Part shown: piece after piece, positions 2,785 through 63,030 of the stretch
Layout: every line of letters begins with the position of its first letter
Numbering within the stretch: the first letter of the stretch is position 1
Assembly: GCA_048938385.1 (NCBI GenBank)
Contig: JBHLMG010000001.1
Coordinates: 128,001 to 192,000 of the forward strand
DNA length: 64,000 nucleotides
From: Promethearchaeota archaeon
GTDB lineage: Archaea > Asgardarchaeota > Hermodarchaeia > Hermodarchaeales > Hermodarchaeaceae
Direction of reading: 5' to 3'
Position numbers and translations under genes: made by a program
Notes under the pieces: generated by a model
Seen by the model: the letters and a program-made list of their open reading frames with translations, nothing else
Database searches by the model: none
What the model was told of the DNA's origin: nothing

Positions 2785-3284
2785 TTAACCCTTCTCTAAT
2801 TCGCCGAGCGCTGCACGCAGCTCTTCTCGCTCTGCGTCAGTCTTACCTGCCGCTACTGCTGGCTTCTCGGCCATGAATTCATCTAATACTTTCGCAAGCT
2901 CCGCCGCGGCTTTCATCATCGTTAAACGAATCATCCCAATGTTTACTTCCTTATCGGTGATTACGCAGAGTACACCTTTTCCTGCACCAGCAGCGAAAAT
3001 CTTGCCATCACCAAACTCCGAAGTCACGATCGTCAGATCGCCTACATCCAAACTTTTTCCCTGCTCTTCGCTAGCGCAGAACACGGCACTTGCAATCGCG
3101 CCTATCCCGTCTACATTTCCGCGTTGTCTAGGTATTAGAGCAACTCAACGGGGTAGTACGAGAATTTTGAAACATGCGCGATAGTAAGACCGGTTCGGTC
3201 AACGAGGATAGTCTTCTTAATTCCTGGTTCGGATTTAATGACATCGGAGAGGATTTCATCAAATTGTCTCACGGTTATTGACAA
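2785..3284 (-). CDS. Roadblock/LC7 protein, 156 aa, split by a 29-nt BHB intron; join(3146..3284, 2785..3116)
   Basis: N-half (ILVDRTGLTIAHVSKFSYYPV) and C-half (VDGIGAIASAVFCASEEQG) lie in different frames; removing 3117-3145 gives 471 nt and ...YYPVDVDGIGA...; TTG start at 3284 inferred. Confidence 0.85.
3117..3145 (-). other. BHB-type intron in mRNA (roadblock gene)
   Basis: CCGU/GCGG 4-bp helix, bulges UG^A and AA^A, inner stem GUUG(C)UCUA/UAGACAAC, outer CUAC/GUAG. Confidence 0.85.
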
Positions 3285-3411
3285 GGCTAATCCCTTTCCA
3301 CCGAGCTTGCGGGAGTTACCATTTGAGGGGCAGCTTATATCTTTTGTGTGGCAGGAGGTGGATGCCAATTGCGTCGATGATGTTCGAGAGAGAACTGTGA
3401 GAGTTGTCGCA

Positions 3412-3699
3412 TCATCCTCGTAGGACGATGAGGATATAATCTTCTTCAGGCGCAACCATGACTTCTCCCTGTGGAGTTGAGATTGTAAGAAAGTTCATTC
3501 CACCTTCGCCAAGTTCGTCGACTACGCGTTTAGCTTTGCCTACTAGTGATGTAACGAGGGCAGAAATAACCTCAGTTTTCTCTGCGTTTAGGTTGGAGCT
3601 GATTGGTAGGCCTTCCATGTTGGTAATGATAACGCCTCGCACTCCTTCGTGTGCACCGAGGCGTTTGAGTGAGTCTTTCAACGCTTTTCCGCCAATCAT
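3412..3699 (-). CDS. Roadblock/LC7 protein (dynein light chain roadblock-like)
   Basis: [32 protein letters not shown]. Confidence 0.9.
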
Positions 3700-44541: not shown

Positions 44542-44887
44542 GGACGGGAGCCCCGACGGTTGACAACCCTTCCTGACGCCGTGCTCACAGCCAGGTCTCG
44601 GACCCGGATCTCAGAAGCATCTACAGTACAGGCTTACGCTGCTCCCTCCCGGGTCTCGCTGGGTTCACCTGTTTAAGGCGATTCAGCCCTTCCTACGAAA
44701 AGCCTACCGCCACCAGCGATCCTCTGAGGCGGATCGTCACAGCCACGAACAGCGAGTCGTACACCAGGTCAGAAAGCCTAACATCGGCATTCAGCCTGCC
44801 TTATAGAGCATTTGCAGAACAGGGGAGCCTTAGCCAGCCCGTAGCGGTGCTGCGGGGCTTCTAGCCCCCCGCCTAGGCTCACCGTCC
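44542..44887 (-). ncRNA. ffs: SRP (7S) RNA with a candidate 29-nt BHB intron
   Basis: Terminal helix GGACGG.GAGCC/GGCTCCCGTCC; helix 6 GUAG tetraloop; helix 8 GAGACCC-GGGA-GGGAGCAG; Alu-like CUAGGCGGGGGG...CCCCUGU. Confidence 0.88.
44831..44859 (-). other. BHB-type intron in SRP RNA Alu domain
   Basis: GCUA/UGGC helix, bulges GA^A and UA^A, inner stem with ACC loop. Confidence 0.75.
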
Positions 44888-51328: not shown

Positions 51329-52652
51329 TTATCCTAGCTCGTCAAATGTGTGAATTCGTAGTTTCACAGGTTTTTTGACGATATTGCCAATGCGTACACC
51401 AATGATTAGTCCGACTCCTCGCTCTTCTGCAATATCGATGAGTCGTTGGGTGACAACGCCATCTAACAGAAGCGTACTAGCCTTCTTTAGATTCTGAAAT
51501 TCGTTGGCAATTTCGCCAACATGCGTTTCTTTTATCGGTTTGAATTTCTCGTCGAGAATTACTGCCGTCATGGTTTGTTGAATTTTTCGGGCTTGCTCTA
51601 AGACTGAGTCAGGGATTCCTAAATCCCGAGGTTTTGGTACCGTGGAGGGCACTTTAGCTCGAGAGCTCCTTGCGGTGCTTCGCTTCGTGTCTCTTGTCGT
51701 GCTTCGGCGTACTGTTTTTACTTTCTGCGTTGTTGTGCGACTACGCCGTTTGGTTTTAACGGCTACCTTTGGTGGAGCACTTTTCCGTTTTATTTTCCCA
51801 AGGACTTCTTCAGCAGAAACTCTATTTCGAAGTGCTTTGGTCACTTCCTTATGAGTAAGCTCTTCAACTTCTCTTCCTGTCGGCGCTCTGGCCACATAAT
51901 CCACTTTTGTAACTTGAGCGAGTTCTTTTAGAATCAGATCTCCACCGCGGTCGCCATCAAGAAAAGCAGTAACAGTTTTACCTTTAGAAAGGTCGACGAT
52001 GAACTTCGGAATTGAGGTTCCTTCAACAGCTATTGCGTTCTTGACGCCAGATCGAAGTAGGGCTAATACATCTGCACGCCCTTCAACGATGATTATCGAA
52101 TCTGAGGATTCAACTTCCGGACCCGCTGGTAGTGCTTCTTTGCCTAGTTTGATGATATCAGCGGTTCGCGATTCTTTCTGAACGGTATCGGTCATTTCCT
52201 GTGAATCAGGTGAAACTTCACCTTCCCAATCGCGTAACAGGTGCACTGCTCGATCGATGATTCGGCGGCGTTTTGCTTCACGGACATCTTCGAGCTTTTC
52301 AAGAGTGATTTTTGCTGCACATGGACCTACACGGTCGACAGTCTCCATAGCAGCAGCGAGTATCGCAGTTTCAGTACGATCAAGGCTACAAGGAATAGTA
52401 ATTGTTCCTTGGGATTTACCGCCTTCAGATTTTAATTCAACTTTTATGCGACCGATGCGTCCCGATTGCTGTAGTTCTCTTAGGTCCAAATCTTCGCCGA
52501 TTGCCCCTTCACATCGGTGATATGAAGTGTAGGCCCTCTGTTTGACCAAAGAGTGCGCCTACAACATCGGGTTTTTCAACAACTCCATCTATTTCGATTT
52601 TTCCACGAATACAATACTTAGTAGTACCAGTGCTTTCTGCATTTGCTCCCAT
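51329..52652 (-). CDS. dnaG: Archaeal DnaG (exosome-associated TOPRIM protein), 431 aa, split by a 28-nt BHB intron; join(52529..52652, 51329..52500)
   Basis: Exon 1 [30 protein letters not shown]; exon 2 [18 protein letters not shown]; spliced length 1296 nt; VEGRADV, DGDRGG. Confidence 0.93.
52501..52528 (-). other. BHB-type intron in mRNA (dnaG)
   Basis: GCCU/GGGC helix, bulges AC^A and AA^U, 9-bp inner stem CUUCAUAUC/GAUGUGAAG with ACC loop. Confidence 0.9.
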
Positions 52653-52800: not shown

Positions 52801-53220
52801 TTAAAACTTTGTGCCTTTCGAAGAATTATCAAATTGTTTGAGTCCTTCAATCACTCGAACATGCCAACAAAAAGCTCGACGTAACTGGTTTCGTTCATCC
52901 TGCAACAGGGTGACTCCTCTGCCCTGTAGTTGGGTGGATAGTTGGCGTGCTAGTTGTTCTCCACGGCGATCAAAATCGAAAAGAATCAATAAGGCTTCAC
53001 ATGAGGCTAGCTCATCAGCTAAACTCACAATACTATGACTCGCTAATAGGTGAATTGGACCTGTTAAGCCAAGTCCCCGAAGCGCTGTGATATCTTTAAC
53101 ACCTTCAACGACGACGGCTATTCCTTGGTTTGAGATTTTGCGCAAAAGGTCAATACCTTTTGTAAACTGGTCTTCTAACTGATCTTGACGAGATTGAGTG
53201 GTTTTTTTGCGCGTCTTCAT
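52801..53220 (-). CDS. Small TOPRIM-domain protein
   Basis: VVVEGVKD..AL, DFDRRGE, IEGL. Confidence 0.85.
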   Translation of the reverse strand: MKTRKKTTQSRQDQLEDQFTKGIDLLRKISNQGIAVVVEGVKDITALRGLGLTGPIHLLASHSIVSLADELASCEALLILFDFDRRGEQLARQLSTQLQGRGVTLLQDERNQLRRAFCWHVRVIEGLKQFDNSSKGTKF

Positions 53221-62367: not shown

Positions 62368-62964
62368 TCAGCTTCCGGCTACAATATCTGCAGGCGCGAC
62401 TAGATAGTAGGTGGGTTCACCTTGACGGTCTAACACTGCAAGCATCAATTTCTTGCGATTGCGTTTTGCCTGTTTGGTGAAAACATCAAGTTCTGTTACT
62501 TTGAGAGGAGAACCTTCCGAAATAGTACAGACGAAATACTTAGCTGTTGCTTCATTAAGTTTGGCACCACGAGGATAAACCCGAAATAACAACCCTTTCC
62601 CATACCCAGTACGGACAACATAGCCCCTACTCCGTAAATCGCTGTACACAAGAAAGCGTGTCCATAGCCCCAATTGCTTCTCTGCGAGTCGTTCAAGGAG
62701 AACCGAAAATTCCAGCGTGTTCTTCTTTAAATCCTTCACCGAGATACGTTGCCGTCTCAGTAGCAATAATGCCTCTTCGGGTTCAAGGATAAGCGTTTGC
62801 GAGTCTTTCAAAGTTCCGTAATACCCGGCTTCAAACAATAGTTTCGCATGTTGCCCTGTGATTACCACGCGACCACGGGTTAGCTTTGCTTGAATGGGTT
62901 CATCGGGGAGTTGAGATCGTTCATCGCTGGGCGTATCATCCTCAATGGTTTTTTCCTTGGTCAT
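62368..62964 (-). CDS. endA: tRNA splicing endonuclease subunit, probably the structural (beta) type
   Basis: GYYG, EEALLLL, FLVYSDLRSRGYVV, FRVYPRG, RKKLMLAVLD; no His at the expected catalytic position. Confidence 0.85.
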   Translation of the reverse strand: MTKEKTIEDDTPSDERSQLPDEPIQAKLTRGRVVITGQHAKLLFEAGYYGTLKDSQTLILEPEEALLLLRRQRISVKDLKKNTLEFSVLLERLAEKQLGLWTRFLVYSDLRSRGYVVRTGYGKGLLFRVYPRGAKLNEATAKYFVCTISEGSPLKVTELDVFTKQAKRNRKKLMLAVLDRQGEPTYYLVAPADIVAGS

Positions 62965-63030
62965 CCTTGAACACCATCTCAAGCGAAAAGAGGCGAAGCT
63001 ATATAACCTCTTCCCGTCACCCCCAATTTA

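Follow-up and report, generated by a model that had tools for sequence, protein, structure and literature searches.

The dnaG gene of a Hermodarchaeaceae archaeon is broken by 28 nt that very probably are a bulge-helix-bulge (BHB) intron, spliced out of the pre-mRNA by EndA and RtcB. The DNA comes from Promethearchaeota archaeon (Hermodarchaeaceae; assembly GCA_048938385.1, contig JBHLMG010000001.1, positions 128,001-192,000), and all coordinates refer to this whole stretch of 64,000 nt, here called the window. The gene lies on the minus strand and the interruption (52528..52501) falls within the FGQTEGLLG motif, where the minus strand reads GGU CAA ACA GAG GGC CUA C / ACUUCAUAUCACCGAUGUGAAGGGGCAA / UC GGC GAA GAU UUG GAC. 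Exon 1 (52529..52652, minus strand) starts at ATG 52652 and holds 41 codons and the first base of a split Leu codon. Exon 2 (51329..52500, minus strand) supplies the last two bases of this codon, 389 further codons and the stop, and contains the TOPRIM domain. The intron between them (52501..52528, minus strand) is assigned on its sequence, its fold and its conserved junction. When positions 52501-52528 are left out, one continuous frame of 432 codons (431 aa and the stop) extends from ATG 52652 to the stop at 51329-51331, and the predicted peptide spanning the junction is TEGLLGEDLDLR. In the unspliced gene, the exon-1 frame closes at a UGA within the insert and the remainder of the gene stands in a different frame, the length of 28 nt not being a multiple of three. 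Judged from its sequence, the dnaG message almost certainly has to be spliced.

Both exons belong to a genuine DnaG. Together they give a full-length match to the NCBIfam DnaG model NF003108, N-terminal domain and TOPRIM included. Exon 1 corresponds to model positions 1-30 and exon 2 to positions 26-419 (E 5e-140, 467 bits, cut-off 300), and Pfam Toprim_4 and Toprim both match exon 2.

The minimum free energy (MFE) fold of 52550..52485 reached -18.9 kcal/mol with z = -2.46, which is modest for a fold computed from a single sequence. The exon strand GCCU (52531..52534, minus strand) pairs in this fold with the intron strand GGGC (52503..52506, minus strand; fold and alignment) to form a central 4-bp helix, which is paired in 100% of the cells in the 16 distinct sequences of our alignment. 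Two 3-nt bulges flank it. The 5' bulge ACA (52528..52530, minus strand) is invariant in the 18-sequence alignment, and the 3' bulge AAU (52500..52502, minus strand) is closed on its outside only by G52535-C52499. The inner hairpin (52507..52527, minus strand), recovered by fold and covariation, has a 9-bp stem, CUUCAUAUC/GAUGUGAAG, and the loop ACC. If each bulge is cut behind its second base (AC^A, predicted at 52529|52528, and AA^U, predicted at 52501|52500), the joined exons read CUA C|UC and E-G-L-L-G is restored. Because the bases flanking the two cuts differ, this junction is unique, and a single cut pair alone gives CUA-CUC. The cut rule derived from the structure and the deletion that repairs the protein thus choose, to the very base, the same junction independently, which is more than chance, and they agree in each of the 18 genomes. 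At the 3' site, the outer helix consists of a single invariant G-C pair or, alternatively, of a 2-bp helix next to a 2x2 loop. This makes the motif relaxed and not fully canonical, and in the predicted fold it would fit the HBh' class instead of the strict hBHBh' class.

A preliminary description of this DNA had already proposed such an element, and most of it stood up to re-reading. The insert at 52501-52528, its sequence and the 432-codon ORF from ATG 52652 all matched the sequence as we read it. The proposed BHB with GCCU/GGGC, the ACA bulge and the hairpin consists of the same elements that the MFE fold returned. One correction concerns the 3' site, a bulge or small internal loop that only the one G-C pair or the alternative 2-bp helix closes. 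Furthermore, canonical cuts were said to restore the DnaG signature, and deletion indeed gives EGLLG at the sole matching junction. A comparison of the insert with Rfam returned SorX at 15.9 bits against a gathering score of 46.6 (E 0.27), which we took as a chance match.

In the mechanism we propose, the exon GCCU of the pre-mRNA would pair with the intron GGGC into a central helix of 4 bp. The 9-bp hairpin of the intron would stack on one side of this helix, and the splice sites would lie in the 3-nt bulges ACA and AAU on opposite strands. An alpha-beta EndA would then cut behind the second base of either bulge, leaving 2',3'-cyclic-phosphate and 5'-OH ends for RtcB to join. This ligation would create the codon C|UC, and translation of the ligated mRNA would give full-length DnaG of 431 aa. 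That EndA cuts, RtcB ligates and the product is translated is our inference. The anatomy of the insert, together with the presence of genes for EndA alpha, EndA beta and RtcB, suggests that dnaG expression depends on the tRNA-splicing machinery.

Two EndA paralogues, one catalytic and one non-catalytic, are encoded in the source genome. The alpha protein (186 aa), encoded at G000:C23:325025-325582, matched the catalytic subunit of Aeropyrum pernix (3P1Z_B) with E 6e-46. The alignment is ungapped through the N-terminal loop region, and the Tyr, His and Lys residues (Y/H/K) are kept. The other paralogue is located within the window (62371..62982, minus strand). It matches PF01974 and PF02778, and compared to M. 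jannaschii EndA its His position is replaced. This protein is presumed to be the structural beta subunit and would be a trans-acting factor encoded within the window itself. An RtcB gene is also present at G000:C23:204997-206307, so that, as a matter of gene presence, EndA alpha, a His-less beta paralogue and RtcB are all encoded. Asgard archaea have an (alpha-beta)2 EndA with an L1 loop that gives broad specificity (PMC5829648), and the predicted EndA set of the source genome agrees with this published enzyme. Cleavage of the relaxed dnaG motif would depend on such a broad-specificity EndA. In the 2.48-Mb genome, ARAGORN found no more than 15 tRNA genes without interruption, and 31 calls, some of them spurious, when introns at the canonical position were allowed. 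Evidently, most tRNA genes are interrupted, some at positions that ARAGORN cannot model. The low count of uninterrupted genes fits reports that Asgard tRNA genes are heavily interrupted (PMC11291895; bioRxiv 10.64898/2026.10.13.758758).

The dnaG insert is conserved among relatives. A pattern scan of species-representative genomes recovered the insert with its flanks in 16 MAGs, mostly named Hermodarchaeota or Hermodarchaeum, with a few labelled Promethearchaeota, Thor- or Odinarchaeota. The source genome, which comprises 2.48 Mb in 51 contigs at about 90% completeness, carries one dnaG, and among 40 relatives there was one per genome where the gene was found. All 14 same-genus genomes with a dnaG match have the insert at the identical exon junction CTAC|TCGG. 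The same holds for the sister genus of the family, which comprises four genomes, three with a dnaG match (3/3 carrying the insert) and a fourth without match. The insert measures 28 nt in the source genus, and the three sister-genus copies have 29, 29 and 31 nt. At a fixed junction, its length hence drifts free of any reading-frame constraint. Fixation of the intron predates the divergence of the two genera of the family.

Covariation was analyzed in an 18-sequence alignment (16 distinct sequences), using pairing partners slid by 1-3 columns and 500 shuffles as controls. The proposed structure had 96.9% of cells paired, compared to 39-54% with slid partners. Three pairs of the inner hairpin showed compensatory double changes (C-G to U-A, A-U to G-C and U-A to A-U), and none of the 500 shuffles reached the observed pairing or covariation score. 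Within Hermodarchaeaceae the central helix changes on one side only, and its covariation support therefore comes from other Asgard families, as described below. An unconstrained RNAalifold consensus recovered the inner hairpin and not the central helix, since GGYC paired with the exon-1 GGCC instead. This predicted competing pairing within the exon is a real caveat for the central helix within this family.

Sequence divergence across the 18 genomes corroborated this picture. Exon 1 has a pN/pS of 0.076 (0.43 synonymous and 0.03 non-synonymous differences per site) and exon 2 a pN/pS of 0.12 (0.69 and 0.08), which argues that each exon is translated in its own frame. In the intron, the p-distance was 0.04-0.08 in the stems and 0.63 in the 3-nt loop. 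Since the stems are far less diverged than the loop, the hairpin itself must be conserved. The earlier statement that both exons are intact and no pseudogene is at hand is in line with these values and with the lack of further stops or frameshifts in the exons. An intact second dnaG, which had been named as an observation that would speak against splicing, was found neither in the source genome nor in the 17 relatives of the family. At the DNA level, a 5964-nt contig from an independent assembly of run X1 spans the insert with 0 differences, and contigs of relatives from a second study cross it without gaps. Contigs of four runs (DNA or of unrecorded kind, and silent on expression) contained the insert, and none showed a joint across the 28 nt.

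We surveyed dnaG in 400 Asgard genomes and retrieved the sequences. Four other Asgard families, with 38 genomes between them, proved to have a second BHB intron in dnaG (loci L021, L025, L027, L028 and L049-L082). It is inserted 13 nt upstream of the Hermodarchaeaceae site, in phase 0 between Gln and Thr (FGQ|TEGLLG), and measures 29-43 nt. The cut rule at this Q-site is the same as at the Hermodarchaeaceae site (GGNC-AA^A ... NNNN-AA^A). Here covariation links the wobble position of the Gly codon to the helix strand in the intron, giving the combinations GGCC/GGCU, GGGC/GCCU, GGAC/GUCU and GGUC/GACC, and the central helix is fully paired in 36 of the 38 genomes. Presence of the Q-site intron varies among species within two genera. 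Most other surveyed Asgard families have an unsplit dnaG whose sequence equals the predicted spliced junctions, with an uninterrupted FGQTEGLLG[DE][DE]LDLRELQ in the protein. The two introns share the gene, the motif, the BHB geometry and the use of a GGNC exon tetramer as helix strand. Their sequences are unrelated, however, and while the Q-site intron occurs in some species per genus, the Hermodarchaeaceae intron is present in every dnaG-positive genome of the family.

Similar inserts interrupt other genes of the source genome. Its cbf5 contains a 41-nt BHB insert (G000:C4:12651-12691, equivalent to L085:1463-1503) with the motif CUGG-AU^A ... CCAG-AA^A in motif I, and removal restores INLD|KPPGPTSH. 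At this site, cbf5 is split or reads through stops in most of the source genus and is unsplit in all four sister-genus genomes. A separate feature of cbf5 was noticed in two relatives (G006:C30:47437-50070 and G011:C9:50012-52648), where the match is broken at about model position 170 by about 1.6 kb within open frames of 836-902 aa. In sequence, this interruption looks like an intein or another large insertion. Within the window, a roadblock/LC7 gene (2785-3455, minus strand) carries a 29-nt BHB insert at 3117-3145 with the motif CCGU-UG^A ... GCGG-AA^A. In thirteen relatives precisely this 29-nt stretch is missing, and their sequence agrees at every base with the predicted spliced junction. 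The intron-less roadblock alleles would thus provide a natural control of the cut rule within this lineage, and the comparison points to a species-specific, recent intron gain. We also screened the whole genome for mRNA introns, asking for a 4-bp helix, 3-nt bulges, four or more base pairs in the inner stem and a fusion of ORFs. The inserts in dnaG, cbf5 and roadblock were all among the matches. In total there were 2415 matches, compared to 2342-2385 with decoy cut rules; with no excess over decoys, such a screen is uninformative without homology filtering. A blastn-short search of the genome with the dnaG, roadblock, cbf5 and candidate SRP inserts, aimed at a mobile repeat family, found no further copies. 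For the candidate 29-nt insert in SRP RNA (44831-44859, minus strand), the MFE fold of 44880..44815 took a structure other than the proposed BHB.

Could ribosomes simply pass over the dnaG insert? Bypassing or frameshifting across the 28 nt, with the hairpin as bypass signal, would require no splicing. Phage T4 gene 60 is a translational bypassing system, and the dnaG insert resembles it superficially in having a stable hairpin right after the take-off region and a stop codon shortly downstream. We nevertheless regard this reading as most unlikely. The matching pair of take-off and landing codons is absent, and the second conserved Leu exists only as the joined C|UC, so that a hop from CUA would drop an invariant residue of EGLLG. 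Inserts of 28, 29 and 31 nt all occur at one exon junction. The 4-bp helix and the two 3-nt bulges are conserved, although bypassing needs no such geometry. Moreover, this geometry recurs with helix covariation at another dnaG site in 38 genomes and is found again in the cbf5 and roadblock genes of the source genome.

The strong purifying selection on the exon-1 frame (pN/pS 0.076), and the correspondence of this exon to the beginning of the DnaG family model, speak against the idea that a truncated DnaG is made from an internal start, or that two polypeptides are produced with the hairpin as a regulatory or terminator-like element between them. This idea draws on a 406-codon ORF that begins at TTG 52549, upstream of the insert, in the source genome. 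The TTG is not conserved, however, being TTC in two relatives, and there is no conserved upstream start. In many relatives, the exon-2 frame has a stop within the insert. Since a truncated product would also leave the conserved bulge geometry and the exact junction unexplained, we consider it very unlikely. Finally, a frame-breaking insert in a MAG of about 90% completeness might raise the suspicion of a pseudogene or of an assembly or sequencing artefact. The chance of this is close to nil, because 18 species-level genomes obtained in several studies share the insert, independent DNA contigs contain it as well, no other dnaG exists in the source genome or its relatives, and the exons are under purifying selection without further stops or frameshifts. 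We rejected this explanation on the combined grounds of conserved junction, single copy, purifying selection and contigs from two studies. An intron removed by EndA and RtcB remains our reading of the insert.

The closest precedent is the BHB intron in the cbf5 pre-mRNA of Crenarchaeota, which encodes a pseudouridine synthase (Watanabe 2002; Yoshinari 2006; Yokobori 2009, PMC2738675). According to the latter study, cbf5 is the only archaeal gene with confirmed splicing, other cases being predicted (PMC2738675). In crenarchaeal cbf5 and in Hermodarchaeaceae dnaG alike, a short intron of the endonuclease type lies in coding sequence and its excision restores a conserved motif. The hosts have a hetero-oligomeric EndA in both cases, and gain and loss are patchy among relatives. 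They differ in gene and phylum, and cbf5 splicing is proven at the RNA level, whereas that of dnaG is predicted. The dnaG insert also has the geometry and the cut rule of tRNA and rRNA BHB introns processed by an (alpha-beta)2 EndA with the Crenarchaea-specific L1 loop (PMC5829648, PMC3241643). Such enzymes accept relaxed motifs with a weak outer helix, and the dnaG motif is of that kind. In contrast to these introns, dnaG would be an mRNA substrate without a tRNA body, and half of its central helix consists of Gly-Leu codons. Coding and structural constraints hence overlap in this strand. In a full-text literature search, we found neither a dnaG intron described nor any BHB intron reported from protein-coding genes of Asgard archaea. 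We conclude that this is a known mechanism in a new gene, dnaG, and in a new phylum, the Asgard archaea.

In eukaryotes, HAC1/XBP1 mRNA is spliced in the cytoplasm by Ire1 and tRNA ligase or RtcB. As an analogy, the dnaG insert would share with it a small coding intron defined by structure, the combination of an endonuclease with a tRNA-type ligase, and a change of reading frame upon removal. On the other hand, Ire1 recognizes paired stem-loops and not a BHB, and HAC1/XBP1 splicing is stress-regulated, whereas the present data give no sign of such regulation for dnaG.

Most simply, the dnaG intron is a neutral or selfish insertion, which is tolerated since half of the recognition helix is contributed by the exon. 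A regulatory role is conceivable, though unsupported. The coupling of RNA decay to RNA processing through the intron, as suggested in the preliminary description, is speculative. DnaG is termed an exosome subunit from work in other archaea, and to our knowledge no DnaG-exosome association has been described from Asgard archaea. This association was described in Sulfolobus and other archaea (e.g., PMC5570065), and the source genome contains two adjacent RNase PH genes that are Rrp41/Rrp42-like. The occurrence of like inserts in cbf5 and roadblock argues for intron spread and not for a regulatory design specific to dnaG.

The introns of the source genome differ in their distribution. The dnaG intron is family-wide where the gene was found, the cbf5 intron is confined to one genus and the roadblock intron to this species only. 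We think it somewhat probable that endonuclease-type micro-introns are actively colonizing Asgard protein genes, and that their gain is ongoing and can be dated on the tree. If this is true, the prokaryotes most closely related to eukaryotes would routinely need mRNA splicing by the tRNA-splicing machinery to express core genes. A second split gene family, interrupted in every examined member of one Asgard family and at another site in further Asgard families, would show that such splicing is no one-off. The lineage closest to eukaryotes would then tolerate introns in coding sequences and keep gaining them, with the species-specific insert in roadblock, a eukaryotic-signature gene, as a dated example of gain. 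There would also be a practical consequence, as gene callers truncate or split such genes and DnaG, Cbf5 and others would be mis-annotated in Asgard genomes.

Directly upstream of dnaG we noticed an ORF of 139 aa (52801-53220, minus strand) with a TOPRIM-like motif pattern, VVVEG...FDFDRRGE. Judging by this pattern, it may encode a small stand-alone Toprim or RNase M5-like protein beside the Toprim protein DnaG.
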